From assembly GCA_025351525.1 (NCBI GenBank), contig JANXVV010000109.1:1-40040 (forward strand): a DNA stretch of 40,040 nt, given 5' to 3'. Source of the DNA: Humisphaera sp. GTDB taxonomy: Bacteria; Planctomycetota; Phycisphaerae; Tepidisphaerales; Tepidisphaeraceae. Made by a program: the position numbers and the translations under genes. Under the pieces are notes generated by a model. It saw nothing but the letters and a program-made list of their open reading frames with translations. It made no database searches and was not told where the DNA came from. Shown here one piece after another: positions 7,609 to 35,996 of the stretch (within the stretch, counting starts at the first letter, position 1; the number at the start of each line of letters is the position of its first letter).

Positions 7609-7671
7609 CGTAGCATGGGCTACCAGCCCATGCTTTCAATTCCAAAACATGGGCTGGTAGCCCATGCTACG
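7609..7671. repeat. Nested double-hairpin REP element, full copy
   Basis: CGTAGCATGGGCTACCAGCCCATG - CTTTCAATTCCAAAA - CATGGGCTGGTAGCCCATGCTACG. Each 24-nt arm is itself a hairpin (CATGGGCT-ACC-AGCCCATG). It sits between the stop of 7705..8580(-) and the start of the sulfatase gene. Confidence 0.9.
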
Positions 7672-7704
7672 TAAAAGTGACGAACATTGATTCATCCCGA
7701 CCCT

Positions 7705-8580: not shown

Positions 8581-8621
8581 GAGATTCCCTTTCATAAAGA
8601 CCATTAAACCAACCCAGGTTT

Positions 8622-12368: not shown

Positions 12369-12403
12369 AATGCACGCATTATACCGCGTTTGAGATTGCA
12401 TTC

Positions 12404-13846
12404 CTACTTCGCCGACCATTCCGTATGAATGAACTCCCCCGGTTTCTCAGTGCGCTCATAGGTATGCGCCCCAAAGAAATCCCGCTGGGCCTGTATCAGA
12501 TTGCCCGGCAGGCGCGCCCGGCGATAGGTGTCGTAGTACGCCAGCGAACCGCTGAACGCCGGCAGACCGATGCCGTTGGAAATGCCCATGGCCACGATGC
12601 GCCGCCAGGCGTCCTGCCGGCTGTTGATCATCTGGCGGAAATTGTCGTCCATCAGCAGATTCGGCAGACCCGGATTGCTCTTGAACGCCTTGGTAATCTC
12701 TTCCAGAAACGCCGCCCGGATGATGCACCCGGCCCGCCAGATCATGGGCAGATCGGGGAGGGTCATGTGAAAATCGAACCCGCCCTTGTCCTTCGGCTTG
12801 TTCGCCGCCGCCAGCATCGCCATGCCCTGCGCGTACGAACAAATTTTCGAGCAGTAGAGCGCATCCTTCACATCGTTGATGAACTGCTTGAGATCGCCGA
12901 CGAGAGGCTTGGGCTGCGGGCCACCGAGCGATTTTGCAGCCGCCACGCGTTCATCCTTGATCATCGACAGTTCCCGGCTGTCCACCGCCGCCGCCATCGT
13001 GGGGACGGGGACGATCAGATCGTTCGCGGATTTGATCGTCCACGTGCCGGTGCCCTTCATGCCGACCACATCGCGAATCTGTTCGACCAACGCCTGCTTT
13101 GGATTTTGCGGATCGGGGAAGTTGATCACCTTCTCGGTGATGTCGATCAGGAAACTCTGGAGCTCGCCGGTGTTCCAGTCGGCAAAGGTGTCCTTCAGCT
13201 GCGCGTTGTTCAAACCGCCGATGTTTTTCAGCAGATCGTACGCCTCGGCGATGAGCTGCATGTCGCCGTACTCGATGCCGTTGTGGACCATCTTGACGAA
13301 GTGGCCCGCCCCGCCGTCACCACAATAGGTGACGCACGGAACGCCATCGCTCGGGGCTTTCGCCGCGATTTTTTCGAGGATCGGGCGGACGTGCTCGTAG
13401 CTCTCGCGGTCGCCGCCCGGCATGATGCTCGGACCCCACAGCGCGCCCTCTTCACCCCCGCTGACCCCCATGCCGAAAAACTTGATGCCGGTGGGTTTCA
13501 GATACGCCACCCGCCGTTCGGTATCTGTGAACAGCGAATTGCCCCCATCCATCACGATGTCGCCCGGTTGAAGCAGCGGCTTGAGTTCCTCGATCACCGC
13601 ATCGACCGGTTTGCCGGCCTTCACCATGATCAGAATCCGCCGCGGCTTTTCGAGGTTGCCCACGAAGTCGGCGATCTTCTCGAACCCCTTCGCATTCTTC
13701 CCCTTCGCCAGCTCATTGATGAAATGTTCGGTCTTCGAGTAGGTCCGATTGTAGACCGCGATGGGGAACCCGTTCCGCTCGATGTTGAGCGCGATGTTCC
13801 GACCCATGACTTCCAATCCGATGATGCCGAATGCCTGACCGCTCAT
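12404..13846 (-). CDS. gnd: 6-phosphogluconate dehydrogenase, decarboxylating
   Basis: MSGQAFGIIGLEVMGRNIALNIERNGFPIAVYNRT (NADP Rossmann fold), GAGHFVKMVHNGIEYGDMQLIAEAY and RDFFGAHTYER. GAGGA lies 8 nt upstream of the ATG at 13846. Confidence 0.95.
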   Translation of the reverse strand: MSGQAFGIIGLEVMGRNIALNIERNGFPIAVYNRTYSKTEHFINELAKGKNAKGFEKIADFVGNLEKPRRILIMVKAGKPVDAVIEELKPLLQPGDIVMDGGNSLFTDTERRVAYLKPTGIKFFGMGVSGGEEGALWGPSIMPGGDRESYEHVRPILEKIAAKAPSDGVPCVTYCGDGGAGHFVKMVHNGIEYGDMQLIAEAYDLLKNIGGLNNAQLKDTFADWNTGELQSFLIDITEKVINFPDPQNPKQALVEQIRDVVGMKGTGTWTIKSANDLIVPVPTMAAAVDSRELSMIKDERVAAAKSLGGPQPKPLVGDLKQFINDVKDALYCSKICSYAQGMAMLAAANKPKDKGGFDFHMTLPDLPMIWRAGCIIRAAFLEEITKAFKSNPGLPNLLMDDNFRQMINSRQDAWRRIVAMGISNGIGLPAFSGSLAYYDTYRRARLPGNLIQAQRDFFGAHTYERTEKPGEFIHTEWSAK

Positions 13847-16274: not shown

Positions 16275-16919
16275 TCACATCGGGATCGGAGCCACGCATC
16301 CTTTTTCCAGCACCAGCACCCGGTCGGCCAATCGCCCGGCCTCACCGTGGTGGTGGGTGACGTGCAGGGTCGTCACGCCGGTGCGTTGGCGAATGTTTTT
16401 CAGCAGGGCGTACATCTCTTCGCGGGTCTGATCGTCCAGGGCGCTTAGCGGTTCATCGAGCAGCAGCACGCCGGGATGAAAAGACAGGGCACGGCCCAGG
16501 GCAACGCGCTGCGCCTCCCCGCCGCTGAGGCCGGCCGGCCGCCGCACCAGCAGGTGGCCGATGCCGAGCAGGTCGGAAATTTCACAGACCCGCGCGGCGA
16601 TTTCGGTCGCGGGGGCACGGCGGATTTCCAGGGCGAAGGAAAGATGCTCGCGCACCGTCATCGTGCTGAACAGCGCCTTGTCCTGCGGCACGTAACCGAT
16701 GCCGCGCTGCCCGGGGGACAGGTGCGTGACCTCGCGGCCCCCCAGTTTGATCCGCCCGGCTTTGACGGCCCGCAGGCCGCAGATCGCTTCGAGCAGGGTG
16801 GTTTTGCCGCAACCGGTGCGGCCCATCAGCACGGTGTACTGCCCGGGGGGAACGATGAAACTGACGTGGGTCAATGAGAACGCACCGGCGGAGATCGACA
16901 GCCCGGATACTTCGATCAT
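16275..16919 (-). CDS. ABC transporter ATP-binding protein, ModC/CysA-like but lacking a C-terminal TOBE-type domain
   Basis: Walker A GRTGCGKTT, signature LSGGEAQR, Walker B LLLDEP and an H-loop VTHH are present. The start overlaps the permease stop by ATGA. Confidence 0.9.
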   Translation of the reverse strand: MIEVSGLSISAGAFSLTHVSFIVPPGQYTVLMGRTGCGKTTLLEAICGLRAVKAGRIKLGGREVTHLSPGQRGIGYVPQDKALFSTMTVREHLSFALEIRRAPATEIAARVCEISDLLGIGHLLVRRPAGLSGGEAQRVALGRALSFHPGVLLLDEPLSALDDQTREEMYALLKNIRQRTGVTTLHVTHHHGEAGRLADRVLVLEKGCVAPIPM

Positions 16920-17770
16920 CGGTCCTTCGCCTTTCCGGTCGAATCATCCGGGAGGCTGCCATTGTCCATCAGTCGGATGAGCAACAGCACGAGGATCGCC
17001 GCCGCGACCATCAGCAGCGACACCGCGACCGCCGCCTCGATATGGCCGGCGCTGAGCTCCAGAAAAACGCTGGTGGACAGCACTTCGGTTTTCATCCGGG
17101 TGGCTCCGGAGAAGATGAGGATCGGCCCGAACTCACCGAGCGACCGCGCCCAGGCCAGTGTGCCGGCGGTGAGAATCCCCCGCCGTGCCTCCGGCAGGGT
17201 GACCCGCCAGAACGCGCTTCGCCGGGTGCAACCGAGCGTGAGCGCCACCTGTTCGCCGCGCGGATTGATCTGATCGAAGGTCACGCGCATCGTCCGCACC
17301 GCAAACGCGCACGCCACCGCGAACTGGGCCAGCACCACGCTCGGCACGGCATAGGTGACCGGCAGATGCAGCGTGTCCTGGAAATGCCGTTCGATCGACT
17401 TGCCCCCCAGCCGCATCTGAAACAGGATCAACAGGCTCAACCCCACCACCAACGGCGGCAGCACGATGGGGATGTCCAGCACCGCATCCACCCAGCGACG
17501 GCCCGGAAATCGGGTTCGCGACAGCAGATAGCCCAACGGCACCGCCACCCACACGCTGAGGATCGCGGTTAAAGTGCAGGTGATGAGACTGAGCCTGATC
17601 GCATGGCGAATCTCCGGCGTACGCAGGGCGCTGCCGAGGACGGCCGGCGTGGTGAACGACACATCCGCCGCGATCATCGCCAGGATCAGCACGATATAGA
17701 TCGCGCCGATCAACGAAAGACCGGCGAGGAAAACGCGGTCGGAGCGACGGGTGTTTGCGGAGATGGACAT
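16916..17770 (-). CDS. ABC transporter permease, ModB/CysTW family
   Basis: The start is set at MSISANTRRS (17770). DIPIVLPPLVVG and the EAA-loop WARSLGEFGPILIFSG closely resemble ModB. The 688-aa ORF-track version is extended antisense through the RMD1 gene. Confidence 0.85.
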   Translation of the reverse strand: MSISANTRRSDRVFLAGLSLIGAIYIVLILAMIAADVSFTTPAVLGSALRTPEIRHAIRLSLITCTLTAILSVWVAVPLGYLLSRTRFPGRRWVDAVLDIPIVLPPLVVGLSLLILFQMRLGGKSIERHFQDTLHLPVTYAVPSVVLAQFAVACAFAVRTMRVTFDQINPRGEQVALTLGCTRRSAFWRVTLPEARRGILTAGTLAWARSLGEFGPILIFSGATRMKTEVLSTSVFLELSAGHIEAAVAVSLLMVAAAILVLLLIRLMDNGSLPDDSTGKAKDR

Positions 17771-17929
17771 AAGGCCGTGGCGGATGACGAAACGCGAACT
17801 CACGAATGGGCAGCATGTAACATAACGAGGGTCCAGTGTCATTGCGGAACCCCGCATATTTTTTCGCAGATGTGCATGATCACACACGGTCATTCCGTGC
17901 GAGTATGATTGCAGCCTTGAGGTATCCCC

Positions 17930-19081
17930 ATGACTCTCTCCGGCATTTCCGTTCCCCCGCCGCCCACCCCGCACTACACCGGTGAAGTGGTGTTCGTCTA
18001 TGCGTTCGATGTCGCCTACGAAATGCGCCGCGCCCCGATCAAGATGCTTCTGGGCCAGCCGGTGGCGCAGTTCACCGCCGACGCCAGCAAGCGCAGCCCG
18101 CGTCAACTGTTTTTCTATCGCGCCCAGATGGTCCGCCTCCCGCCGCTGGAACGATTCGGGCCTTACGGGCCGGTGCGCGTCGAGCGCAGTGTGAAGATCC
18201 TGCCGGTGGGAGCGATCAGCATCACGATCCGGATGCCCTTCCGGGTCGAGCGAATCGCGGACCTGGTCGCGTTTCACAATCTCAAGTACAGCAATGGAAC
18301 CTCGCTCTATGAAGAGGTGCGGCAACTGGCGGATGAAGTCCGCCGTGAACTGGTGCCGTATGCCGTGCGCCCGGTCGCCAAACTCGACGAGGAGGAGGGC
18401 TACACCGTTTTCTGTCTCCACGCGCCGCTGACGACCGCGACCGCGACTCCCTTGAGAACGGAGGATTGGCTGCAGGCCAATCGACGTGAGGTGGCGGCGC
18501 TGCTGACCGCCGAGCCGGATCCGGTGCAACTTTCCGATCAGGAGTTCATCGAATCGACCGGCAAGTATTTCAGCTACTACGACCGCGATCTGGTGGTGAT
18601 CGACTGGGACGCGGCCATGATTATCGATGAGCCGCGGTATCTCGACGAAACGCTGTACATCATGGAGCTGGCCAATCTGCAGTTGGCGGAATTGGAGGCC
18701 TACGACCGCCTGCTGGATGATGCGGTGGACCGGGCCTACCGCGATCTGAACACCAAGCGGCTCGACCGCTGGCAGGGCCCGCGCATCCAGCGGGAACTCC
18801 GCGAAATCCGCGTCGATCTCGCCCGGCTGAGCGATGAGCTCTCGAACATCACCAAATTTTTCGGCGACTGGCATCTGGCCCGAATCTATCAGGGGCTTTC
18901 GGCACGATTCCATCTGGGCGACTGGCATCACACGATCGATGAAAAATTGAAGACGCTCGACGACCTGTATCAGTTGCTGCAATCCGACCGGAACAATCGA
19001 TGGATGCTCAAGTTGGAAGTGATCGTGGTCGTGCTGTTCGTGATCGATCTGGCACTGCTGATATTCGGGGGGCGGAAATGA
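17930..19081 (+). CDS. RMD1/DUF155 (YagE-like) family protein with C-terminal TM helix
   Basis: VFVYAFDVAYEM, YFSYYDRDLVVIDWDAAMII, ITKFFGDWHLARIYQGLSARFHLGDW and the C-terminal LEVIVVVLFVIDLALLIF. GAGG lies upstream of the ATG. Confidence 0.8.
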   Translation: MTLSGISVPPPPTPHYTGEVVFVYAFDVAYEMRRAPIKMLLGQPVAQFTADASKRSPRQLFFYRAQMVRLPPLERFGPYGPVRVERSVKILPVGAISITIRMPFRVERIADLVAFHNLKYSNGTSLYEEVRQLADEVRRELVPYAVRPVAKLDEEEGYTVFCLHAPLTTATATPLRTEDWLQANRREVAALLTAEPDPVQLSDQEFIESTGKYFSYYDRDLVVIDWDAAMIIDEPRYLDETLYIMELANLQLAELEAYDRLLDDAVDRAYRDLNTKRLDRWQGPRIQRELREIRVDLARLSDELSNITKFFGDWHLARIYQGLSARFHLGDWHHTIDEKLKTLDDLYQLLQSDRNNRWMLKLEVIVVVLFVIDLALLIFGGRK

Positions 19082-20539
19082 TCAGTGATACCACCAACTG
19101 GCCGTCAACCAACTGTTTTCACCGTGGCTGGACATCAGATGCACACAGTAGAGGATGCCAAAAATGACGTGGAGCGAAAACGTGAACATGCAGAGTGCGG
19201 AGCGCCAGTCGATGGTTTGCTTCGGACGGGGCAGCGATCGACTCGCGCGAATCCTCGCGATGGCGAACAGGGTGGATTCGACGAACAGAACGAACAGGGC
19301 CAGCTGCGCGCTCCACAGGAAATTTCCATGGCGGGTTCGTTTGGTTTCGGCGATGAGATAGGTGAAAAGCAATCCGACCGCGAACACGAGCCATGCCAGA
19401 TTCAACCGCGAACGCGACCGCGCTTCCCGCCACCATGTGAGATAGCAGGTGACGGGAAACAAAATTGACAGCAGAAGTTTCGGCGCCAAATGTCGCGACA
19501 TCGCGGACATCGTCGCGAGCGGCGAAAAAATCGCGTGCGCCCCGCCGGTGTAGCGCGCGTATATCCAACTTTGCCAGCCCAGCACCAAAAACGTCGGCAG
19601 CACCAAGCCCATGAGAAGGAAAGTCCAGCGGACCGGTTGGCTGAATATCCATTGCCGAAGAACAGCCATGAACAATACGCCCGGCACGAGGCACAACAGG
19701 AAGCTGGGTTTGGCCATCGCACCCGCAATCACCAGAACGGCGAATGCCATGGTTGCGAACCACGACGGGCGGGCGTTCGATTTCGACTGCTCCGGGAATC
19801 CCGCGAGAGTCACGAGGAATGTCAGCAGGACGAACGGTTTGGCCGCGATGACGGTGGGGTTGTGCCAGACATTGATGCCGATGTATCCGAAGTAATAGCG
19901 GCCATCCTGCACGTGCAGTAGCGCAATCGGAGTGAGGATCATCAGACCGATGACGAGCGCCACCCCCGCGAGAGTGCCGAGCGCGCTGTCGATCGCCGTC
20001 GCCGTGCGAATCCGGGTCCAGAGGATCATGGACAACAGCCATGCGAAAAATACATTCGTGATGATGGCGGCGGTGGCGTACTGCGTGCTGACTTCCGCCA
20101 GGACCTCATCGTCCACCTCACCGCGAGAATTTCCGACGGCGATTTGGGCGGCGGCGGTCTGGCGATTCCCTTGAAACACTTCCACCCCCTTCTGCACGCC
20201 GATCAACACCCCATGATAAAGCGGATGGGGGATCATCACGGTTCGCTGTTCGCGCAACTCGGCAGCCAGCACACTGTGTGGCGGGAAATCCGACTGCGGG
20301 ACGATCGCCGGTGTGCCGCGAATTCCCCGGCTGAGCAAAGGTGCGAAAAGGGTGGGGATGATCGCGACCAGCAGGGACGTTGCGAAAAGGTCTAATCGAT
20401 CAAGACGCCAAACTTTATCGAGAATGCCTGAAAGCGGTCGAACCATTTTCATTCTCAATTGCTCCAATGGATCTGCTCCACTTTTTGCATCAATCAGATC
20501 CTTGAAAGTCCTCAGAGTTTGTGAATGAGAACGTAGCAT
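19082..20539 (-). CDS. Large polytopic membrane protein (roughly 10 or more hydrophobic segments), last gene of the glycan operon; possible GT-C-type transferase or polymerase
   Basis: The 485-aa ORF is rich in hydrophobic helices (LLVAIIPTLFAPLL, AAIITNVFFAWLLSMILW, LAGVALVIGLMILTPIALL, FLLMGLVLPTFLVLGW and others). The start is uncertain: the annotated ATG lies inside a REP half-copy, and internal Met30/Met32 are alternatives. Confidence 0.7.
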   Translation of the reverse strand: MLRSHSQTLRTFKDLIDAKSGADPLEQLRMKMVRPLSGILDKVWRLDRLDLFATSLLVAIIPTLFAPLLSRGIRGTPAIVPQSDFPPHSVLAAELREQRTVMIPHPLYHGVLIGVQKGVEVFQGNRQTAAAQIAVGNSRGEVDDEVLAEVSTQYATAAIITNVFFAWLLSMILWTRIRTATAIDSALGTLAGVALVIGLMILTPIALLHVQDGRYYFGYIGINVWHNPTVIAAKPFVLLTFLVTLAGFPEQSKSNARPSWFATMAFAVLVIAGAMAKPSFLLCLVPGVLFMAVLRQWIFSQPVRWTFLLMGLVLPTFLVLGWQSWIYARYTGGAHAIFSPLATMSAMSRHLAPKLLLSILFPVTCYLTWWREARSRSRLNLAWLVFAVGLLFTYLIAETKRTRHGNFLWSAQLALFVLFVESTLFAIARIRASRSLPRPKQTIDWRSALCMFTFSLHVIFGILYCVHLMSSHGENSWLTASWWYH

Positions 20540-20547
20540 GGGCTACC

Positions 20548-21153
20548 TTACGCCCCCGTTTTTATACCGGCGACGCAGATGAAGTATTCATGCCAGATCG
20601 CGAATTGATCCCAGGTTTCGATCTTTAATTCGGTCGACACCGCGCTGCGCAACGTCTCGGCGGTGCGAGGGAAACTGCCGCGGTCGTAATGCCAGATCAA
20701 ACGGCCGACACGCCTGCGCGGCGCCCAGATTGCATCGGACAGAATCAGCTTGCCGCCGGGCGCTAAAACCCGTGCGCACTCGGCCATCATCCGTCGCAAC
20801 GCTTCATCGGTCAGATGATGCGTGACATTCGTGCAGAGAACGACGTCGACGGTTGCGGTCGCCACGGGGATGCGCGTCGCATCGCCCAGAAGCGCGATCC
20901 CGGTCGGATTCTTGGAGGCGAAGCCGCGTAATTTCTGGGGGTCGATATCCAGACAGATGTATCTGCTGGAATCACTCCATAAGTCACCGACCGAGCCGGT
21001 CCCCCCGCCGATATCCAACACCCGGCGGGCCGCCCGGAGCGGTATGATTCTCGTCGCCAAGCGGGCGCGAACCTGCTTAGCGCCGACGAGCGTTTGAGCG
21101 GTGTCGTATACCCAGGGGCGGGCCACGAATTGATGGAGCAGGGAACGGATCAT
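20548..21153 (-). CDS. Class I SAM-dependent methyltransferase
   Basis: VLDIGGGTGSVGD (motif I), YICLDIDPQKL and LAPGGKLILSD. The ATG at 21153 overlaps the upstream stop as ATGA. The ORF-track GTG at 21180 is less likely. Confidence 0.85.
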   Translation of the reverse strand: MIRSLLHQFVARPWVYDTAQTLVGAKQVRARLATRIIPLRAARRVLDIGGGTGSVGDLWSDSSRYICLDIDPQKLRGFASKNPTGIALLGDATRIPVATATVDVVLCTNVTHHLTDEALRRMMAECARVLAPGGKLILSDAIWAPRRRVGRLIWHYDRGSFPRTAETLRSAVSTELKIETWDQFAIWHEYFICVAGIKTGA

Positions 21154-22823
21154 CGGGGTTTCCGTAATCGAGCCGACCACTTTTCTTCAACTTCAACCTG
21201 CCATGAATCCGACTCACCGGCGAATTGGGGACGGCGGTAGATCAGGTAGTGCCTTTCGTCCAGCAGCACCCGCCGATAGAGCCGTAATCCATCGTCGAGA
21301 ATATCCTGCGGCGTCAGGTCGACGGTGTCTTCCGGATCGAGAATGAGAGTGGTCAGGCGATATTTTTCACTCAACCGTTTCAGCGTTCGGGCATTGGCGG
21401 GCACGAATGAATACGTCACGTCCGGATGCAGCGAAAGATAGGGAAGGCCCAGTTGCGGCGGGCCGGCCAGCACGGTGGAATCATCGTGGTGCAGTGCTTC
21501 GACGCGAACGGCGGCCCGCTCATCCTCGGTGTCTCTGGACACCATGTCTTTGAACGCTTTGAACGAGATCGGCAGCATCCAGGCCGCGACGCAAACCGCC
21601 CCGATCACCTGTGGCCACAGTCGGTCTTCCGACGGCAAATGGCGGAGGAGCAGCGAGAACAGGGCGACCCACAGTTTCGCCGCCATCAACGCCACGAACG
21701 GCAACGCAAACATCGCCACCCGCAGCGGTCGGTCGTAATGGATCGAATAAAACGCGCAGATGAAACAGATCGTGACCAGAAGCAGAGCCGCGCCGCCGAG
21801 TGAGATTGGATCGCGCTTCCAAAGGCCGCAAATGAAACCGATTGGAATCGCCAAAAGCAGCGGCAGGAGCATGGGAATGGTCGCCTCGCGCTTGCGACGA
21901 TCGTAGCGGCGCAGCATCGCTTTGCAGTTTTCGCCGAAGCGCTTGGCGAGAGTCTGCCGCCATTCCTGCGAGGTGGGCTTCAGTTCATCCCACGCGACAG
22001 AATCCCGATAGATGCGTTCCGCATCCGCCTCCGCGAGAAAAATATCGAGTGTGATCAGCGAAGGCCGACCTTTGGAAATGGGCGATGCGTATACCGCACC
22101 GAGAAGCAGCACCGATAGACCAAAAAACAAAACGGCGTGACCGAGATTGTAAAGAAATCCGCGACCTTCAGCAGTCGGCGCCATGAGCAGCACGATTGCC
22201 ATCGGCACCGCGAGAAACGCGCCGGTTTCGCGGTACAGAAATGGAAGCAACACGAGCAGGGGACCGATCCACGGCATCCATCGACGCGGCAGATGGACGA
22301 ACACACAAAACGCGACCGCCGCCGCCGCCACAACGGAGGTTTCGGCCATTGCCGTCTGCGCGAAATACAGGTTCGCCGGATAGATCAGGAAAAATCCTGC
22401 GGCGGCCAATGCGGTTTTCCGGGTGAAGAAACGCAACCCGATCAGATAGGTGCAGATCGCGCCAAGCGTGTAAGCGAACTGGCTGACGAAAATACTTCTG
22501 CCAGTGCCATAACCGAACAGTTTGTAGACCGCGGCGAGATTCCAATAGTAGCCGGGCATGTAGAGGCGCGTTTTAGTGGTGGGTTGCGAGAGGGTCGACG
22601 GATAGATGACATGGCTGACGATTTCGCCAGTGTTCGCCAGATGCCGGGCGGCGGTGACGTAACCGACTGCATCGTTGTCCACGATTCCGCGAATTTGCCG
22701 ACGGCCGACGGCGGAGTTGCCGGCGATCAGAATGACGATCGCCACGACCGCGATGCCGAGGATGTCGGTCAGGACATTTCGTCCACTGACCGCGCGAAGA
22801 TCTTTCGGTGGAGTATCCGTCAT
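21150..22823 (-). CDS. GT-C fold glycosyltransferase, ArnT/PMT-like (GT39/GT83-type)
   Basis: The 557-aa polytopic protein has a first-loop acidic motif DNDAVGYVTAARHL. This is followed by the multi-TM pattern typical of polyprenyl-phosphate-sugar-dependent transferases and a soluble C-terminal ~130 aa. Confidence 0.7.
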   Translation of the reverse strand: MTDTPPKDLRAVSGRNVLTDILGIAVVAIVILIAGNSAVGRRQIRGIVDNDAVGYVTAARHLANTGEIVSHVIYPSTLSQPTTKTRLYMPGYYWNLAAVYKLFGYGTGRSIFVSQFAYTLGAICTYLIGLRFFTRKTALAAAGFFLIYPANLYFAQTAMAETSVVAAAAVAFCVFVHLPRRWMPWIGPLLVLLPFLYRETGAFLAVPMAIVLLMAPTAEGRGFLYNLGHAVLFFGLSVLLLGAVYASPISKGRPSLITLDIFLAEADAERIYRDSVAWDELKPTSQEWRQTLAKRFGENCKAMLRRYDRRKREATIPMLLPLLLAIPIGFICGLWKRDPISLGGAALLLVTICFICAFYSIHYDRPLRVAMFALPFVALMAAKLWVALFSLLLRHLPSEDRLWPQVIGAVCVAAWMLPISFKAFKDMVSRDTEDERAAVRVEALHHDDSTVLAGPPQLGLPYLSLHPDVTYSFVPANARTLKRLSEKYRLTTLILDPEDTVDLTPQDILDDGLRLYRRVLLDERHYLIYRRPQFAGESDSWQVEVEEKWSARLRKPR

Positions 22824-23620
22824 ATCCGCCTCGCCACTGCCAACAGCGACACCCCGAGACTGATCCGCCGTCGGTTGCGAATCATATTTGCCTCGCCCGC
22901 CAGCGCGCGATCTAAAAGTCCGTTGACACCCGGCACGATGCGGAAATCCGTCTCGGCCAGTTCAGCCATGTCGGCGGCACCATCGCTATGGCTGAATTGT
23001 CGGTTGATCCGCCGTCCAAGCCAAACGAGCGGATAAATCCACGACATGAATTCGGTCTGATACTCGACCCGAAACCCGGCGGTTTTCAACTTGTCGGTCA
23101 GCTCGTCGAACATATAGCGGCGGGCATGTTTTGCAGCCTGATCGAAGTAACTCCACAGCGACATATGCGCCGGCACCGTGATGCACAACGCCCCGCCCGG
23201 CGCGAGCATGGTCCGCACGCTGCGCAGGACCTGTTCGTCATTTTGAATGTGTTCCAGCACGTCGAACATACCGACCAGATGAAGCGCTTCGGAAAAAGGT
23301 GGCCGCAACACATCGCCTTGAACCAGCGGGCAATTCGAGCGGTGCTTGGCATAGACCAACGCCTCGCGGTAGAGGTCCATGCCGAACACATGACCGCCGG
23401 GGCAGGACTGCTGAAGGAGCCGCAACATGCCCCCGTTGCCGCAGCCGAGTTCCAGCACGTTATACCCCGGTGGGAAACCGGCGGCCAACTGACGGAGGAT
23501 CGTGCCGACGGCGCGCTTGCGGGCGCGGAACCAGAAATGGCGATCCTCGACACCGTCCAGTTTCTCGAAAAACGCCGGGTCGTAACCGGCCGAGGTCACC
23601 CCGTTCGCTGCATGGTTCAT
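22820..23620 (-). CDS. Class I SAM-dependent methyltransferase
   Basis: VLELGCGNGGMLRLL (motif I), VFGMDL, DVLEHIQND and LAPGGALCITVP. There are ATGA overlaps at both ends. Confidence 0.85.
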   Translation of the reverse strand: MNHAANGVTSAGYDPAFFEKLDGVEDRHFWFRARKRAVGTILRQLAAGFPPGYNVLELGCGNGGMLRLLQQSCPGGHVFGMDLYREALVYAKHRSNCPLVQGDVLRPPFSEALHLVGMFDVLEHIQNDEQVLRSVRTMLAPGGALCITVPAHMSLWSYFDQAAKHARRYMFDELTDKLKTAGFRVEYQTEFMSWIYPLVWLGRRINRQFSHSDGAADMAELAETDFRIVPGVNGLLDRALAGEANMIRNRRRISLGVSLLAVARRI

Positions 23621-24777
23621 CCACCGCTCCGGCCATCGAGGCAGTTGAATGCGCGCAACGCCTCGACCACCGTCGCCTGATCATTTTCCGCAAGCTCGTT
23701 ATAGAACGGCAGGCGAAGCAACCGATCGGAAAGGTTTTCCGTCACCGGGCAGTCCCCCGCTTTGCCGCCATATTTACGGCCCATGTCCGACAGATGCAGC
23801 GGCAAATAATGGAACACGCTGAGGATGCCCTGCTGCTTGAGATGGCGGATCAACGCCTGTCGCGATTCGAGCGAGGGCAGCAGCAGATAGTACATGTGAA
23901 ACGTCTGCTCGCACTCCGCCGGCACGAACGGTGTGCGAACGCCCTGCCGCCCGGCCCACTCCGCCAGATTCGCATGATAATATTCCCAAACCCGCCGGCG
24001 CTTCGCTTGAATCTGATCGGCACACTCCAGTTGGCCATACAAAAACGCAGCGAGAATATCGGACATCAGATAGCTCGACCCGACATCCACCCAACTGTAT
24101 TTGTCGACCTGCCCGCGGAAGAATCGGCTGCGGTTGGTGCCCTTCTCACGGATGATTTCCGCACGCTCGATAAACGTGCTGTCGTTGATCAACAGCGCGC
24201 CGCCTTCGCCGCAGGTGATGTTTTTCGTCTCATGGAAGCTCTGCGTGGCGAGGCATCCGAACGTGCCGAGCATCTTGCCCTTATACTTTCCGAACAGCCC
24301 GTGCGCATTGTCTTCCACTACCGCAACGCCGTGCTTTGCGGCGATGCTCATCAACGTGTCCATCTCACAGGCGACTCCCGCATAATGGACCGGCACGATG
24401 GCGCGCGTCTTGGAAGTGATCGACGATTCGAGTTTCGTTTCATCGAGGTTTAGCGTGTCCGGACGAATATCGACAAACACCGGTTTGGCCCCGCGAAGCA
24501 CGAACGCGTTGACAGTGGAAACGAACGTGAAGGAGGGCACGATCACCTCATCGCCCGGCTCGATGTTCAGCAGCAGCGCCGACATCTCCAGCGCGTGCGT
24601 GCAAGAGGTGGTGACCAGCGCCTTGGGGATGCCGATCCGGTTTTCGAGCAGTTCGTGGCACTTGCGGGTGAACATCTGATCGCCGGCGATCTGCCCGATG
24701 GCCATCGCCTGCGAGATGTACTCCTGCTCGCGCCCGGCCAGGGAGGAGCGGTTGAACGGAATGCGGATTTCAGTCAT
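23617..24777 (-). CDS. wecE: dTDP-4-amino-4,6-dideoxygalactose transaminase-like (DegT/DnrJ/EryC1 family, WecE type)
   Basis: Long near-identical stretches to E. coli WecE as I recall it: PSFTFVSTVNAFVLRGAKPVFVDIRPDTLNLDE, VPVHYAGVACEMD, SFHETKNITCGEGGALLIND, ERAEIIREKGTNRSRFFRGQVDKYSWVDVGSSYLMSD and LLRLPFY. The start is at MTEIRIPFN (AAGGA upstream). Confidence 0.85.
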   Translation of the reverse strand: MTEIRIPFNRSSLAGREQEYISQAMAIGQIAGDQMFTRKCHELLENRIGIPKALVTTSCTHALEMSALLLNIEPGDEVIVPSFTFVSTVNAFVLRGAKPVFVDIRPDTLNLDETKLESSITSKTRAIVPVHYAGVACEMDTLMSIAAKHGVAVVEDNAHGLFGKYKGKMLGTFGCLATQSFHETKNITCGEGGALLINDSTFIERAEIIREKGTNRSRFFRGQVDKYSWVDVGSSYLMSDILAAFLYGQLECADQIQAKRRRVWEYYHANLAEWAGRQGVRTPFVPAECEQTFHMYYLLLPSLESRQALIRHLKQQGILSVFHYLPLHLSDMGRKYGGKAGDCPVTENLSDRLLRLPFYNELAENDQATVVEALRAFNCLDGRSGG

Positions 24778-24827
24778 CGACGATCCTTGTCGGTGCGATA
24801 CTGTCACTAAGAACCCGTGAAACCTTG

Positions 24828-24889
24828 CGTGGCATGGGCCACCAGCCCATGTTTTCAATTCAAAACATGGGCGGGTAGCCCATGCTACG
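24828..24889. repeat. Nested double-hairpin REP element, full copy, inside the operon
   Basis: CGTGGCATGGGCCACCAGCCCATG - TTTTCAATTCAAAA - CATGGGCGGGTAGCCCATGCTACG. It contains the TAG stop (24885-24887) of the WecD-like gene. Confidence 0.9.
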
Positions 24890-25637
24890 AGTCGCCTCGC
24901 GAAAACCAGCGGTGGTAGTATAGTTCAAGCGTGCGGGGGATAAAACCGGTGCGCGCGTAGAGTCGTTGTGCCGCCATATTTCGGCCTTGCGTTACCACCG
25001 AAACACGCCGCACGTTCTGTGCGATGAACCACTCCATCGCCGCCGCCACGAGTTGCCGACCAAGCCCTTTTCCTTGGTGCGGTACATCCACCGCGATCAA
25101 ACCGATACTCCCCTCGTCACTTTCTTTCGAGCGATGACACGTGACATATCCCCCGACTGAACCTTTTACGTCACTCACGAAAACCGCCTGCGCGAATCCC
25201 TCGAAGCTCGATTGAATCCAGGTCTCGTAAAGTGATTCGCACTGTTCGCGGGGAAACCGATCATCGTAGAAAAACCGGGTATCCGTATGACTGATCCTGG
25301 CGATGCGCCGCATCTCCGAAAGGTCGTCAATTCTCGTTTCCCGAATGCCGCTCACCGGCTTAGCCATCCCCGGTCGAGGTGCATCAGACACCGTTCGTTC
25401 CAAAGTCATTCTCACATCGACCAGATGAAACTCCCACGCCTCCGCCAGTGTGACAGTGACTGAATCATCCGACCGCGCCAGAAAATAAAGGCACTGAATC
25501 CGCCGTTCTTCGCACCAGCATTCGATGGCGTCGGCAATATCGGGAGTGAGAACGTTGCCCCGCACGCGGGCGACCGGAAACCCGAAAAAGTTCGAGTCCC
25601 AGGGAAGCAGTTCGCACGGTTCGGCGGGGGATTCCAC
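24885..25637 (-). CDS. GNAT N-acetyltransferase, WecD (dTDP-fucosamine acetyltransferase)-like
   Basis: LLPWDSNFFGFPVARV at the N-terminus, GYVTCH....IGLIAVD...GKGLGRQLV and VSVVTQGRNMAAQRLYARTGF follow the WecD layout. I prefer the GTG at 25637 (AAGGA upstream, 4 nt after the GT2 stop). The ORF-track start at 25733 would overlap the GT2 gene by 92 nt. Confidence 0.7.
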   Translation of the reverse strand: MESPAEPCELLPWDSNFFGFPVARVRGNVLTPDIADAIECWCEERRIQCLYFLARSDDSVTVTLAEAWEFHLVDVRMTLERTVSDAPRPGMAKPVSGIRETRIDDLSEMRRIARISHTDTRFFYDDRFPREQCESLYETWIQSSFEGFAQAVFVSDVKGSVGGYVTCHRSKESDEGSIGLIAVDVPHQGKGLGRQLVAAAMEWFIAQNVRRVSVVTQGRNMAAQRLYARTGFIPRTLELYYHRWFSRGDS

Positions 25638-25641
25638 AGAT

Positions 25642-26616
25642 TTAATCCTTGATCGCTTCACCGCTAAGCCGCGAGCGGACGGTGTAGGTCGGTCGTTCCA
25701 TCGTGCGGAAATGCAGGCGGGCGAGATATTCACCGATGATGCCCAGGGCGAAAAGTTGCGCGCCGGAAAAGATCGCGATCACCGACGCGAGGAACGCGAA
25801 CCCCGGCGCGGCCACGCCGTGGAACAGCCGCATGGCGATGACAAAGAGCAGAATCCCTAAACCGATCAGCGTGAAGAGAAAGCCGATCATGCTCGCCAAC
25901 TGCAACGGCCAGGTGCTGAAGCCGGTCACCATGTTCAGGGCATGCACCAGCAGTTTCCGCAGCGTGTAATTCGAAACGCCGACCGTTCGCGGCTCATGTT
26001 TCACCGCGATCGCCGTGAAGCGGGTGGTGCCCCAGGTGAGCAGCACATCGATCGAGACGAACGGGCTGCGATAGGTGGAAAACGCGCCGCGCACCGCCGT
26101 GCGGAAAACGCGAAAGGCGCTGATATTCCCCGCAGTGTCCGCCCCCATCGCCTTTTGTAGTACCGCTTTGGTGATCTTCGACGCCAGATTCCGCCAGAGC
26201 CCGTGCGTCATGGCCTCGGGCTTGCCGTAGACCACGTCGTAGCCTTCCGCCAGTTTTGCCAACAGCGCGGGAACCTCTTCAGGCGGGTTTTGCAGGTCAT
26301 CGTCCAGCGTGACGATTTTGTCGAACCGCGCCGCCCGGATGCCGCAGAGCAACGCGTTGTGCTGCCCGTAGTTCCGCATCATGTCAAAGCCGACGACGCA
26401 GGGATATTTTCCCCGCAGCGTTTCGATCACCGGCCAGCTCCCATCGCGGCTTCCATCGTTGACGAGAATGATCTCATGGCTTGCCGTTAGCCCGGTGAGA
26501 ATAGGCACCAACCGCGCGAGCAAAAGCGTCAGCGTTTCCTGACTGTTGTAAACCGGAACAATGACGGAAATACCCAAGGGCAGCAGATCAGGTTGCGTGG
26601 AATCCGAAGGGGTCAT
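25642..26616 (-). CDS. GT2 polyprenyl-phosphate glycosyltransferase, ArnC/GtrB-like
   Basis: ISVIVPVYNSQETL, ILVNDGSRDGS, MRNYGQHNAL and LDDDLQNPPEE are present. Two C-terminal TM helices (LASMIGFLFTLIGLGILLFVI, FLASVIAIFSGAQLFALGIIGEY) are characteristic of Und-P sugar-loading GT2 enzymes. Confidence 0.85.
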   Translation of the reverse strand: MTPSDSTQPDLLPLGISVIVPVYNSQETLTLLLARLVPILTGLTASHEIILVNDGSRDGSWPVIETLRGKYPCVVGFDMMRNYGQHNALLCGIRAARFDKIVTLDDDLQNPPEEVPALLAKLAEGYDVVYGKPEAMTHGLWRNLASKITKAVLQKAMGADTAGNISAFRVFRTAVRGAFSTYRSPFVSIDVLLTWGTTRFTAIAVKHEPRTVGVSNYTLRKLLVHALNMVTGFSTWPLQLASMIGFLFTLIGLGILLFVIAMRLFHGVAAPGFAFLASVIAIFSGAQLFALGIIGEYLARLHFRTMERPTYTVRSRLSGEAIKD

Positions 26617-26843
26617 GCCGAGTCGCGCCTGTAAAAACCATGGAACCTCGACGTCGTTTGACGTGGTTCGGCATTGTGCAACGAGGTGGGGTCAAAGTCC
26701 ATACATCGCCTCAATGGCGCGATCGTTGAATGCGTACCCCATGACCATCGCATTCGAGATTTCCGGTCGCCTCCACCTTCCTTTTGGAGGGCGGCAGTCC
26801 CCTGCCGCTGATATCACTTATTCAGTCCGCCTATCCCCAAAAT

Positions 26844-27025
26844 ATGTGATAGACTGGGAATTGAACCGACGTAGTAGCTGTTAGCGGTATGATGGGCTTG
26901 CCAAGCAAACGGTTGCAGTCGTTTGTGCCTGTAAATTTGGGCAAGCTGCGGCCAACTCTTCTGTCGTTGTCGCAATTTAGCGATGAAACTTGCGAATGAT
27001 GTGATAGAGTAACGTTGAATTGAAC
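26844..27025 (+). promoter_or_regulatory. Two copies of ATGTGATAGA(C/G)T-N(3-7)-GAATTGAAC in an AT-richer divergent intergenic region; candidate extended -10 promoters or operators
   Basis: The copies are at 26844-26866 and 26999-27025. Each contains TGaTAGA(C/G)T, which fits TGnTAnnnT. They lie 98-280 nt upstream of the S53 peptidase ATG. Confidence 0.3.
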
Positions 27026-27122
27026 GCGTTCGATGAACTCGCGGCAGTTAGATTCGTTTATTTGCTGGCAGCGCGACTCCTTTGAATGACTTGTAGGATT
27101 TCTTTGATTTAAAGGCACTGGA

Positions 27123-29465
27123 ATGATTTTCAAACGCGATAAATGCCGGTTTGTAAAGCCTGCCGTGAAATCGATTCACCCCTTTGTGGAATCGCTGGAA
27201 TCTCGCTGCCTGCTGTCCGCCAATTCACATTTTCAGCAGTTGAGGTCGCCTCATCCGCATCTTCATCGCCATCATGCACCGGTGCGGATGGCTACACCGA
27301 CAATTGCGCTGTTGAAAAAGGCCGGCCATTTCGGGCGTGCCAAACCTGCCGCGGGCACGGCGAGTCCCACCGGTTATACCCCCACGCGTTTCCGCAATGC
27401 CTACGGGATCAACAACGTCAGTTTCGGGGGCATCATCGGCGATGGCACGGGGCAGACGATCGCCATTATCGATGCCCATCGGAATCCAAATGTTGTCGCC
27501 GATCTCCACGCTTTTGACCTGCAGTATGGCCTTGCCGATCCACCGAATTTCACGGTCGTCAATCAATTCGGTGGCTCGGCCGCCTCGGTGAGTGTCGATG
27601 TTGGGTGGGCGCTCGAGATTGCCCTGGATGTCGAATGGACGCATGTCGTTGCGCCCAAAGCGAATATCCTGCTGGTCGAGGCCAACAGTGCCAGCTATGA
27701 CGATCTTCTGGCAGGTGCCGCAAGCTACGCGGCGCATCAGCCCGGTGTGGTGGCGGTATCCATGAGTTTCGGCGGTCCGGAATATGACACGCAGACTGCG
27801 GACTATGGAAGTTACCTCACCACGCCCGTCGGCCATGCGCCGGTCACGTTTCTTGCCGCCACAGGCGACACGGGCGCCTATGAGGACTCGTCCAATACAA
27901 CCTTGAAAACAATCTCGTTTCCCTCCGCTTCCCCCACGGTGGTTGCGGTGGGCGGCACGAGTCTTTTTTCAGACGCCGCAGGAAATGGCGCAACGGAATC
28001 CGGCTGGAACGGCAGCGGGGGCGGTATTAGCGCCTATGAATCCCAGCCGTCCTTCCAACAGGGTGCCGTCACTCAAGTGACTCAGAGTTTTACCCAAAGA
28101 ACGGTCCCCGATATTTCGTTCGTCGCCAACCCAAGTGCGGGCGGAGTGTCCGTATATTGCTCGATTTATAATGGTGCCGCAACCCCTTGGCTAACGGTCG
28201 GCGGAACGAGTCTATCGACACCGGCGGTGGCGGGATTGGTCGCCATCACCGCTCAAGGCAGGGCGCTGGCGGGGCTTGATCCGTTGGATGGTGCGAACAC
28301 CCTGTTGCCGCGATTCTATAATTTGCCTCTATCGAATTTCCGGGATTCCACCACGGGAAGCAACGGATTTTACGGCCGCACCGGATACAACGCCGGCCCC
28401 GGTTATGATTTGGTTACGGGCATCGGCAGTCCCCTGGCAAATCTCGCGGTTCCGCAATTGGTTTCCGGCGGGCCGTTCGTGATTAAAACCCTCCAGCCCA
28501 CCAGTTACAATGGATCAATTTCATCGGTGACTTTCAAATTCAGCCAGGCGATCGATCCGAATAGCTTCTCGGCGACTTTGGGCGGAATCAGCTCTTTCAC
28601 CGATCCGAACGGTGCGGATCTCACCGGTCAGATCACCGGTTCAACCTGGATCAACCCCACGACGCTGCAAGTGCAGTTTGCGACGCAAACGCTGGCGGGA
28701 AATTACTCGCTCTCGCTCAGTCCGCAGATACAGGCGGTCGATGGAACGCAGATGGATCAGAATGGGAACTACATCCCCGGCGAAGCGGATGATGGCTTTA
28801 CGGCCAACTTTTCACTCGTGCCCGCCGCTGCAGTTGTCAATCGCGGCATTCTCTACAACAACAGCGTTTTCGACAACAATACCCCCGCCGCAGGTGTGGG
28901 TGATAACGCCGCCATCGCTCCCGACAAAACCGCCTTGCTCCCCGGTCAAACCGCGACGTTTGCCAACTACACCAGTTACGATAAAGGCATCAACGGACTG
29001 GTGATCGACGCCACGAATTTGACCAACGGTGCGGCTCTCAATGCAAGTGATTTCATCTTCAAGACCACCATCGACGGCACCACCTGGGTCGCCGCCCCGC
29101 CACCCACGGGCGTCTCATTCCGGGCGGCGGATGGCATCAACGGTTCCGACCGGATCGAACTGCTTTTCGCCGATCTGTCCATCCGAAACGCATGGCTTCA
29201 GGTGACCGTCAAAGCCGACGCCACCACCGGCCTCGCCGCTCCCGATGTGTTCTATTTCGGAAACCTGGTCGGTTGCAGCGGCAATCACGTCAACCAGGCC
29301 ATCGTCAATAACACAGATGCGATCGCCGCACGGATCAAAATCAATACGGCGGCCACCATCACCTCCGTGCTTGATTACAATCGTTCCGGCATGGTCACCA
29401 ATACAGATGTGATTACCGTCCGCATCAATAACCTGCACTCGATCCCCTTGATTGTGGGGCCTTAA
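27123..29465 (+). CDS. Secreted S53 (sedolisin/kumamolisin-like) serine peptidase with C-terminal Ig-like and dockerin-like regions
   Basis: YGIN, GQTIAIIDA, EIALDVEWTHVVAPKANI (Glu/Asp of the triad), VVAVSMSFGG and GGTSLSTPAVAGL (catalytic Ser). The C-terminus has DYNRSGMVTNTDV (dockerin/EF-hand-like). The N-terminus has ...VESLESRCLLSA. Confidence 0.8.
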   Translation: MIFKRDKCRFVKPAVKSIHPFVESLESRCLLSANSHFQQLRSPHPHLHRHHAPVRMATPTIALLKKAGHFGRAKPAAGTASPTGYTPTRFRNAYGINNVSFGGIIGDGTGQTIAIIDAHRNPNVVADLHAFDLQYGLADPPNFTVVNQFGGSAASVSVDVGWALEIALDVEWTHVVAPKANILLVEANSASYDDLLAGAASYAAHQPGVVAVSMSFGGPEYDTQTADYGSYLTTPVGHAPVTFLAATGDTGAYEDSSNTTLKTISFPSASPTVVAVGGTSLFSDAAGNGATESGWNGSGGGISAYESQPSFQQGAVTQVTQSFTQRTVPDISFVANPSAGGVSVYCSIYNGAATPWLTVGGTSLSTPAVAGLVAITAQGRALAGLDPLDGANTLLPRFYNLPLSNFRDSTTGSNGFYGRTGYNAGPGYDLVTGIGSPLANLAVPQLVSGGPFVIKTLQPTSYNGSISSVTFKFSQAIDPNSFSATLGGISSFTDPNGADLTGQITGSTWINPTTLQVQFATQTLAGNYSLSLSPQIQAVDGTQMDQNGNYIPGEADDGFTANFSLVPAAAVVNRGILYNNSVFDNNTPAAGVGDNAAIAPDKTALLPGQTATFANYTSYDKGINGLVIDATNLTNGAALNASDFIFKTTIDGTTWVAAPPPTGVSFRAADGINGSDRIELLFADLSIRNAWLQVTVKADATTGLAAPDVFYFGNLVGCSGNHVNQAIVNNTDAIAARIKINTAATITSVLDYNRSGMVTNTDVITVRINNLHSIPLIVGP

Positions 29466-33099: not shown

Positions 33100-33250
33100 G
33101 GACATAACCTGCGGCATTCAGGTGGCATGGGCGTCTCGCCCATGCGGTTGCGGTACTCCGCAACTATGGCCGGTATTCCGGACAATCCAACAAGAGCTGA
33201 GCGATCTTTCACGCTCATACGACATCGTGGAGTACCGCAACCATGAGCGG
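33100..33250. repeat. Degenerate copy of the inner part of the 2925-3256 composite palindrome
   Basis: GCGGCATTCAGGTGGCATGGGCGTCTCGCCCATGCGGTTGCGGTACTCCGC ... CGTGGAGTACCGCAACCATGAGCGG parallels 2975-3160. Confidence 0.6.
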
Positions 33251-35932: not shown

Positions 35933-35996
35933 CGTAGCATGGGCTACCAGCCCATGTTTTCAATTCAAAAAACATGGGCTAGTAGCCCATGCTACG
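35933..35996. repeat. Nested double-hairpin REP element, full copy
   Basis: CGTAGCATGGGCTACCAGCCCATG - TTTTCAATTCAAAAAA - CATGGGCTAGTAGCCCATGCTACG. It overlaps the last 6 codons and the TAG stop of the ligase gene. Confidence 0.9.

Follow-up and report, generated by a model that had tools for sequence, protein, structure and literature searches.

A Humisphaera operon as a candidate periplasmic glycan-decoration module, and M7, an unannotated family of membrane proteins that travels with it

In Gtr-type O-antigen glycosylation, three components work together, a family 2 glycosyltransferase (GT2) called GtrB, the flippase GtrA and a serotype-specific glycosyltransferase (GT) with a GT-C fold, and a three-component scheme is likewise found in pentofuranose GT136 systems (PMC11127046). 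Here, we describe a seven-gene operon in Humisphaera sp. (Planctomycetota) that we read, with a probability of about 0.6, as a periplasmic (extracytoplasmic) glycan-decoration module of this three-component type, with two enzymes of GT-C fold, one of which, an unannotated membrane protein that we name M7, would be the cognate transferase. The operon lies in a 40-kb stretch of DNA (40,040 nucleotides of contig JANXVV010000109.1, assembly GCA_025351525.1), the whole of which is referred to below as the window. It consists of seven minus-strand open reading frames (ORFs) arranged head to tail between 19082 and 26616, which encode a GT2, a WecD-like GNAT N-acetyltransferase, a WecE-type aminotransferase (AT), a methyltransferase (MT1), a 557-aa GT-C, a second methyltransferase (MT2) and M7. 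A preliminary description made from the sequence had listed the same genes in the same order; all seven ORFs are present where they had been placed beforehand, and the domain, PDB and structure assignments bear out the identities it proposed.

The operon resembles Gtr systems in combining a polyprenyl-phosphate (Pren-P) GT2 that has two C-terminal transmembrane (TM) helices with predicted GT-C transfer from a monosaccharide linked to undecaprenyl phosphate (Und-P), and a Pseudomonas homologue of M7 fills the Gtr-type slot beside a GT2 and GtrA. However, the predicted donor is a dTDP-derived 4-acetamido-4,6-dideoxyhexose instead of UDP-Glc, the operon has no GtrA but contains two unrelated GT-Cs and two methyltransferases, and M7 bears no sequence likeness to known Gtr GT-Cs. 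With the Arn system (ArnB, ArnA, ArnC, ArnD, ArnE/F and ArnT), which modifies lipid A with 4-amino-4-deoxyarabinose (Ara4N), it shares a 4-aminotransferase, an N-acylation step and the ArnC-type loading of Und-P with a 4-acylamido sugar, and its GT2 is closest to ArnC. The differences are that the tailoring enzymes belong to the WecE/WecD (dTDP-6-deoxyhexose) branch, that no ArnD, ArnE/F or ArnT orthologue is found, that the GT2 scores far under the ArnC equivalog cut-off and that methyltransferases and a second GT-C are present. In the biosynthesis of enterobacterial common antigen (ECA), WecF adds the sugar in the cytoplasm to lipid II, which is linked to undecaprenyl pyrophosphate. The dTDP-Fuc4NAc branch of that pathway (RmlA/B, WecE, WecD and WecF) has counterparts here in a WecE orthologue and a two-domain GNAT resembling WecD, but these genes are linked to those of a Pren-P GT2 and GT-Cs and no WecF-type GT was seen among the ORFs scanned, which implies periplasmic transfer from an Und-P-sugar.

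Two further systems provide precedents for parts of this arrangement. The Pgf operon of Streptococcus mutans (PgfS, PgfE, PgfM1 and PgfM2) has one loader and two YfhO-type GT-Cs that modify proteins with GalNAc (PMC12041528, PMC5856776). It thus also has two GT-Cs, which in Pgf have distinct roles, next to a Pren-P GT-A enzyme and an enzyme that tailors the sugar, but it comes from a Gram-positive bacterium, whereas the GT-Cs described here are related neither to one another nor to YfhO, the sugar is another one and methyltransferases are present. In Xanthomonas campestris, wxc region 3 directs a side branch derived from dTDP-FucNAc, independent of the O-antigen main chain, that needs the aminotransferase WxcK and the small membrane protein WxcN (PMC4878081). 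This is a genetic precedent for decoration with a dTDP-derived acetamido-6-deoxyhexose by a Gtr-like route, although no methyltransferases have been reported in the Xanthomonas region. The wxc sugar is presumably the 3-acetamido isomer. The statement in the preliminary description that no characterised system with this composition was known therefore stands as far as the whole is concerned, no such cluster having been found in the literature searched, but not for its parts.

M7, the 557-aa GT-C and their genomic partners

M7 had initially been listed as just a second large membrane protein, which does not do justice to it: it belongs to a large family, probably has a GT-C-like fold and travels with the module across phyla. 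A HMMER profile search retrieved 3,446 representative clusters, defined at 50% identity, at E<=1e-3 (1,407 of them at E<=1e-30), with a typical length of ~400 aa. No Pfam match was found for M7 and 29 of its relatives, nor any NCBIfam match for M7 and its distant homologues, while ten M7 proteins with N-terminal extensions yielded neither a Pfam match nor a Rosetta-stone fusion. PDB searches with M7 and with the 557-aa protein, using single sequences and profiles, returned noise only. An AlphaFold2 (AF2) model of M7 from a 30-sequence alignment (pLDDT 89, pTM 0.91) was matched by Foldseek with a probability of 1.0 only to PglB (three entries) and AftA (two chains), at E-values of 3e-3 to 2e-2 and with TMq values of 0.39-0.40, as against <=0.18 for all other matches. 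Across 174 members, D55 (96%), H59 (92%), H76 (89%), K248 (99%) and H428 (98%) are conserved, and E369 and W380 are also near-invariant. D55, H59 and H76 lie in the loop after TM1 and D55 directly follows this helix (residues 19-45 in the model), on what would be the periplasmic side according to the positive-inside rule. GT-Cs characteristically carry an Asp where the first outer loop begins. Together with the PglB and AftA matches, this conserved residue makes a GT-C-like fold probable for M7, although the assignment is not secure.

The contexts in which M7 is found are informative. A scan of GTDB genomes yielded 85 M7 loci (loci and contigs are denoted by L numbers below), the neighbourhoods of which were read by tblastn with the seven window proteins and by Pfam searches on neighbouring genes. 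Many of them are from Chloroflexota and the others from cyanobacteria, Acidobacteriota, Pseudomonas, Geobacteraceae, Actinomycetes, Methylococcales and further groups. In an Anaerolineae genome (L040), GT2 (59% identity), GNAT (42%), AT (66%) and M7 make up an isolated operon; in an acidobacterium (L071), GT2-GNAT-AT-M7 are contiguous; and in a Geobacteraceae genome (L031), GT2 (60%), GNAT and M7 sit amid thiamine and alanine-racemase genes. A Bipolaricaulota locus (L006) that adjoins wzx and wzy has genes for an NTP-transferase, a 4,6-dehydratase-like protein, a GT2, a methyltransferase, a small EamA protein, M7 and AT, and in Coleofasciculus (L014) the series is NTP-transferase, GT2, GNAT, MT1 orthologue, M7 and AT. 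The locus of Pseudomonas wadenswilerensis (L034), which reads wzz, M7, GT2, GtrA, MT1 orthologue (37% identity over its full length), a polytopic protein and a WbpM-like gene, is, on sequence evidence, a classical Gtr-type module within an O-antigen locus in which M7 occupies the GT-C position. Neither the 557-aa GT-C family nor MT2 was found in any of these six loci, which suggests that the ancestral module is GT2 plus M7, with AT, GNAT and MT1 in varying combinations. The 557-aa GT-C and MT2 look like a lineage-specific insertion between MT1 and M7, made in a Tepidisphaerales-like lineage. Because M7 travels with the GT2, GNAT, AT and MT1 genes across phyla, it is probably the cognate transferase of the module, and in any case appears no less likely than the 557-aa protein to have this role.

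One could nevertheless hold that the 557-aa PMT_2-like GT-C is the sole transferase and M7 an accessory protein, for instance a flippase or transporter for the Und-P-sugar. The 557-aa protein has the stronger structural match to GT-Cs and is translationally coupled to both methyltransferases, M7 is without sequence likeness to any known GT, and a polytopic protein could fill the role of the flippase, for which the window has no gene. We regard this as unlikely since elsewhere M7 is found along with dedicated candidates for the flippase, which are GtrA in three loci of Pseudomonas and small EamA proteins in L006, L055 and L087, and several of these loci have no Pfam-detectable GT-C nearby. In addition, the structural matches of M7 are to GT-Cs only, not to transporters, and in several phyla the GT2-GNAT-AT module is accompanied by M7 and not by the 557-aa family. 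A flippase function of M7 was accordingly judged less likely than that of a transferase. A role as Wzy polymerase or WaaL ligase was rejected, as L006 has separate Wzx and Wzy_C genes and WaaL is not among the structural matches listed.

The 557-aa protein was examined in the same way. It scores 25.4 bits with PMT_2, just under the gathering threshold of 26.1, and has no match to PMT (PF02366) in Pfam, nor to ArnT or any other NCBIfam model. Its AF2 model is of moderate confidence (pLDDT 67.5) and includes a C-terminal alpha/beta domain (residues 445-557); with Foldseek it matched STT3, PglB, AglB and ArnT at E-values of 4e-7 to 6e-6 and a TM-score of ~0.5. No variation was seen among 13 homologues at D49, N50 and D51, which form a DND motif following TM1. 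According to the model, the protein thus has a multi-TM fold, acidic residues in its first outer loop and a domain that is soluble, as expected of GT-Cs. A word-indexed search found no more than 13 homologous clusters, all of them metagenomic and from the Tepidisphaerales-like clade.

Could both GT-Cs rather put the lipid-linked amino sugar on Ser/Thr-rich regions of secreted or membrane proteins, in a Pgf/PMT-like O-glycosylation? The Pfam match is indeed to PMT_2, the Pgf operon also pairs one Pren-P GT2 with two GT-Cs (PMC12041528) and the top Foldseek matches are oligosaccharyltransferases that act on proteins. However, a likeness to the oligosaccharyltransferase fold is generic for GT-C-A enzymes, the Pgf GT-Cs are YfhO-type (PMC12041528) and no YfhO-type match was seen here, and no obvious gene for a Ser/Thr-rich acceptor is conserved beside the operon. 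Clustering with protein O-mannosyltransferases, which the preliminary description had named as evidence against its own reading, was not seen either, PF02366 being unmatched and Pmt4 a marginal Foldseek match (E 0.19). A protein acceptor thus seems very unlikely.

The gene order recurs in no fewer than six independent contigs or metagenome-assembled genomes (MAGs), with protein identities of 41-92%, which answers the earlier call for a synteny check. All seven genes are found in L001, L002/L003, L004/L005, L089 and a Tepidisphaerales MAG (L009). Agreement is complete among the homologue-bearing contigs examined that reach far enough upstream; L090, which ends upstream, shows the last four genes and the end of AT. 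Going by sequence, such an arrangement exceeds chance. The closest relative is L009, to which GT2 (92%), AT (90%), MT1 (89%), MT2 (82%) and the 557-aa GT-C (77%) are more similar than GNAT (70%) and M7 (65%). These values indicate that the window derives from a Tepidisphaerales-like planctomycete. Over the relatives, M7 (41-65%) and the 557-aa GT-C (53-77%) contrast with GT2 (85-92%) and AT (83-90%), and fast divergence of both membrane proteins is the pattern expected of acceptor-specific enzymes. GNAT and AT are fused into one protein of 666 aa in L002/L003, which ties the two steps together.

Additional genes of the same kind are found around the operon in these relatives. A third, divergent PMT_2-like GT-C (564-603 aa), absent from the window, lies just upstream of GT2 in five of them (L009:1077-3762, L004:1199-3870, L002:2625-5216, L001:4292-5986 and L089:4319-6028), and beside it in L002, L004/L005 and L009 there is a PIG-L-family deacetylase, also absent from the window, which is a possible analogue of ArnD/LgmC. 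Downstream of the operon in L002 (14798-19315, opposite strand), there is a set of three genes encoding a methyltransferase (261 aa), a 625-aa protein and a 609-aa PMT_2 protein; the latter two, with identities of 35-40%, are paralogous to the third GT-C, so sets of GT-C and methyltransferase genes recur in the Tepidisphaerales-like lineage. Finally, in a second Tepidisphaerales MAG (L010:51-2304), a GT-C of the 557-aa type (32% identity) is directly upstream of an M7-type gene (35%) with no methyltransferase gene in between, which hints at the two types of membrane protein working as a pair.

Proposed loading, tailoring and methylation of the sugar

The GT2 displays the features of a loader of lipid carriers that had been predicted for it. 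It matches Glycos_transf_2 in Pfam (5.6e-24) and aligns over its full length with both ArnC (PDB 9hwj, E 1.4e-50, residues 16-315) and GtrB (sll0501, PDB 5ekp, E 1.9e-43). Its DDDLQN motif aligns with 100-DADLQN-105 of ArnC, a motif whose first Asp has been proposed to act as catalytic base (bioRxiv 10.1101/2025.01.29.634835), and with DADLQD of GtrB, while R142 is aligned to R137 of ArnC. Two hydrophobic helices (~243-261 and 268-294) follow at the C-terminus, so that, by sequence, the protein shows the architecture of a polyprenyl-phosphate GT2, with a GT-A domain, juxtamembrane helices and two C-terminal TM helices. Among NCBIfam models, ArnC (PRK10714) gives 196.3 bits over residues 16-315 and PgfS 136 bits; since the cut-off for ArnC is 529, the GT2 is best described as ArnC-like but not as an ArnC equivalog or orthologue.

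The sugar-tailoring enzymes are, as had been proposed, of the WecE/WecD type rather than ArnA/ArnB. AT exceeds the cut-offs of both WecE models, with 584.9 bits for PRK11706 (cut-off 375) and 545.2 bits for TIGR02379 (434.85), and aligns over its full length with WecE of E. coli (4piw, 457 bits, E 4e-136, residues 6-375). By curated thresholds and full-length likeness it is a WecE orthologue, with ArnB as a distant homologue (~169 bits). GNAT matches Acetyltransf_1 (8e-16) and finds its best PDB match in WecD, the TDP-fucosamine acetyltransferase (2fs5, E 3.4e-9, residues 18-225, full length), but its score with the WecD model PRK10975 (90.5 bits, profile positions 8-220 of 232) is under the cut-off of 219. 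It is therefore called WecD-like, on account of the two-domain architecture that the alignments indicate, while staying under the curated equivalog cut-off. Scans with Pfam and NCBIfam detected no ArnA (formyltransferase/decarboxylase), ArnD or ArnE/F domain in the operon or elsewhere in the window.

MT1 and MT2 are only 23% identical. MT1 matches Methyltransf_23/25/11 and MT2 Methyltransf_11/25 in Pfam, and as soluble proteins that depend on S-adenosylmethionine (SAM) they would act in the cytoplasm. Their distributions differ. MT1 has full-length orthologues adjoining GT2 and M7 in Pseudomonas (L034) and Coleofasciculus (L014, 34% identity), whereas MT2 is confined to the Tepidisphaerales-like clade in tblastn searches of the M7-bearing loci with the window proteins. 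A precedent for methylation on a lipid carrier is AglP of Haloferax, which methylates dolichol-phosphate-bound glycans.

Three kinds of gene had been reported missing, and none of them was found in the 40-kb window: there is no RmlA/RmlB, no flippase gene of GtrA or ArnE/F type (small EamA) and no deacetylase (PIG-L). This is based on Pfam searches of most ORFs of at least 150 aa (a few were left unscanned), on tblastn with GtrA and EamA among the queries and on a scan for small multi-TM ORFs, in which no ORF of 75-200 aa had three or more hydrophobic segments. Absence of the deacetylase is nonetheless a property of the window, PIG-L being present in relatives.

These findings bear on another conceivable pathway, modelled on Arn, Lgm and Flm, in which Und-P-Fuc4NAc would be de-N-acetylated (cf. 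ArnD, LgmC and NaxD) to a cationic 4-amino sugar, maybe N-methylated by MT1/MT2, and put on lipid A phosphates or core, altering surface charge and resistance to cationic peptides. A 4-acylamido sugar mirrors the N-formylated Ara4N (Ara4FN) of the Arn pathway, the GT2 prefers ArnC to the PgfS/GtrB type (196 vs 136 bits), PIG-L-family deacetylases lie just upstream in L002, L004/L005 and L009, and the 557-aa protein, which has ArnT among its Foldseek matches, is ArnT-like in size and architecture, two of its homologues being labelled 'ArnT-like' by JGI. However, there is no deacetylase in the window, L001 or L089 and no ArnT match in NCBIfam. Moreover, Chloroflexota have many members of the M7 family, which is also present in Actinomycetes, its Pseudomonas context is O-antigen and N-methylation is speculation, all of which makes lipid A modification of this kind improbable.

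Operon layout and flanking genes

The coordinates of the operon genes are given in Table 1. ATGA overlaps join the stop of AT to the start of MT1 (23617-23620), the stop of MT1 to the start of the 557-aa GT-C (22820-22823) and the stop of the latter to the start of MT2 (21150-21153), in agreement with the translational coupling of the interleaved methyltransferases and the GT-C reported earlier, except that the start first listed for MT2 (GTG 21180) is probably too early, ATG 21153 matching the length of its homologues (199-205 aa). The start first listed for GNAT (GTG 25733) is probably also too early, since GTG 25637, which is 4 nt past the GT2 stop, gives the length of its homologues (246-249 aa). 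The longest M7 ORF begins 8 nt past the MT2 stop, but comparison with homologues suggests that its real start is probably M30 or M32 (20452 or 20446, giving 456 or 454 aa).

Table 1. Features of the operon and of the region 5' of it in the window
Feature	Coordinates	Strand	Basis or remark
GT2, ArnC/GtrB-type polyprenyl-phosphate glycosyltransferase, 324 aa	25642..26616	-	Pfam, NCBIfam, PDB, motif, TM
WecD-like two-domain GNAT N-acetyltransferase, ~250 aa	24885..25637	-	maximal ORF to 25733
Intercistronic spacer with REP-like double palindrome	24781..24884	-	fold, motif count
AT, WecE-type dTDP-4-keto-6-deoxy-D-glucose 4-aminotransferase, 387 aa	23617..24780	-	NCBIfam, 4piw
MT1, class-I SAM methyltransferase, 266 aa, no TM segment	22820..23620	-	Pfam
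557-aa predicted GT-C-fold membrane glycosyltransferase, PMT_2-like, C-terminal soluble alpha/beta domain	21150..22823	-	Pfam, Foldseek
MT2, class-I SAM methyltransferase, 201 aa	20548..21153	-	maximal ORF to GTG 21180
M7, ~10-TM protein of an unannotated family, probable GT-C-like fold, 485-aa maximal ORF	19082..20539	-	AF2, Foldseek
Divergent intergenic region 5' of GT2, 506 bp, presumed operon promoter region	26617..27122	.	gene layout

The sole real gap in the operon is the 104-nt spacer between GNAT and AT, which contains two copies of CATGGGC-N5-GCCCATG, a motif resembling repetitive extragenic palindromic (REP) elements, and has a predicted RNA fold of -52.8 kcal/mol (z -5.9). The motif has nine matches in the window, where 0.38 would be expected; it is usually paired and mostly found in gaps between ORFs (24833-24884, 7614-7666, 35938-35991, 33126-33144 and 2992-3171). 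The hairpin between GNAT and AT could serve as an mRNA stabiliser or attenuator, and the spacer with its palindrome is absent from L002/L003, where the two genes are fused. The operon promoter is presumed, from gene layout alone, to lie in the intergenic region 5' of GT2. A sigma-70 consensus scan of this region, of a kind that is uninformative for Planctomycetota, yielded nothing convincing, and a scan for sigma-70 promoters and intrinsic terminators gave counts at or under shuffle expectation.

On the 3' side, a convergent plus-strand gene (17930-19081) encoding a 383-aa protein with one C-terminal TM segment ends 1 nt before the M7 stop. L002/L003 have it conserved in the same place (82% identity), and L090 has an MJ0711_N gene (PF27233) there; the convergent gene may be functionally linked to the operon or merely syntenic. 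Next to it, a 688-aa TTG ORF (16916-18982, minus strand) is a long-open-frame artefact, the C-terminal ~300 aa of which correspond to a permease (BPD_transp_1) of an ATP-binding cassette (ABC) transporter that is followed by the ABC ATPase (16275-16919), a pair unrelated to the operon. On the 5' side, a 780-aa protein is encoded divergently from the operon (27123-29465, plus strand). It has a GGTSLSTP motif like that of serine peptidases (S8/S53), a long C-terminal region and no Pfam match, and sits where relatives have the third GT-C, to which it is unrelated. Farther away are genes for a prokaryotic YEATS-domain protein (9966-10931, plus strand), a Uma2-family endonuclease (11820-12419, minus strand) and an ATP-dependent DNA ligase (35979-37580, minus strand), and sulfatase, YHYH and CBM9-esterase genes at 3410-8604 are consistent with a Planctomycetota genome.

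Proposed pathway and its implications

The general logic put forward in the preliminary description, in which a GT2 loads the sugar and a GT-C transfers it in the periplasm after flipping, fits the domains, structures and synteny reported here, and can be filled in as follows. The WecE orthologue would aminate dTDP-4-keto-6-deoxyglucose supplied by RmlA/RmlB encoded elsewhere, and the WecD-like GNAT would then add an N-acetyl group. Homology shows what these enzymes are, and their product would be a dTDP-4-acetamido-4,6-dideoxyhexose of Fuc4NAc type, the exact epimer being a prediction. The ArnC-like GT2, to judge from its family, motifs and synteny, would then move the sugar onto Und-P at the cytoplasmic face, and MT1, together with MT2 in the Tepidisphaerales-like lineage, may methylate the nucleotide-sugar or the Und-P-sugar in the cytoplasm. 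The lipid-linked sugar would be flipped, although the window has no GtrA- or ArnE/F-like gene for this step, and M7 and the unrelated 557-aa GT-C would transfer it to one or more envelope acceptors. As to the possible division of labour, M7 would be the ancestral and cognate transferase of the GT2-GNAT-AT-MT1 module, while the 557-aa GT-C and MT2 would probably serve another acceptor, linkage or form of the donor. The Pseudomonas locus, taken as an analogy, favours an O-antigen or a glycan of lipopolysaccharide (LPS) type as the acceptor.

Several points weigh against this pathway. For every member, the proposed function derives from sequence, structure models and synteny. M7 has no sequence match in the PDB, its assignment as a GT-C draws on weak structural scores (E ~3e-3, TM 0.39), and hhalign finds no relationship between its family and that of the 557-aa protein (probability 0.5%), for which reason the two were rejected as paralogues. 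Most M7 homologues, many of them in Chloroflexota, have no GT2 within 10 kb, and M7 often adjoins another large polytopic or PMT_2-type protein (L007, L010, L033, L006, L014 and L071), so it could be a partner subunit instead of an independent transferase; the large polytopic neighbours in L006, L014, L031 and L071 were assigned to no class by Pfam or BLAST. The relatives that MT1 and MT2 have in the PDB are class-I methyltransferases of a generic kind, with no close relative that would tell of a substrate, 40 kb of sequence offer no flippase gene and no ArnC-type enzyme is known to have a dTDP-sugar as its donor.

The mechanism proposed for the glycan-decoration module is a known three-component scheme, and its conceptual surprise is moderate; what is new is the M7 family as a conserved partner of an amino-sugar and GT2 module. 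A bolder version can be offered tentatively, as something we would not bet on: that M7 founds a new and widespread GT-C family moving 4-acetamido-4,6-dideoxyhexose from Und-P, that the ArnC-like enzyme takes a dTDP-sugar, that MT1 methylates before flipping and that, in Tepidisphaerales, one donor pool feeds two or three unrelated GT-Cs with different acceptors. If correct, this would add to the GT-Cs a new family at the level of CAZy, common in Chloroflexota, cyanobacteria, Acidobacteriota, Pseudomonas and Planctomycetota, would extend ArnC-type loading of lipid carriers to dTDP-derived 4-amino-6-deoxyhexoses and would provide a rare example of a polyprenyl-monophosphate sugar pathway to which methylation is coupled. 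Where O-antigen loci of Pseudomonas have an unannotated M7 gene next to GT2 and GtrA, it could then be interpreted as encoding a seroconversion transferase. Searches of plasmid and phage collections with M7 and with its homologue from Pseudomonas gave no match, and hence no annotated or seroconverting-phage example. In Planctomycetota, the surface chemistry of which is little known, the operon would represent an undescribed envelope modification and offer a genetic handle on the decoration of envelope glycans.

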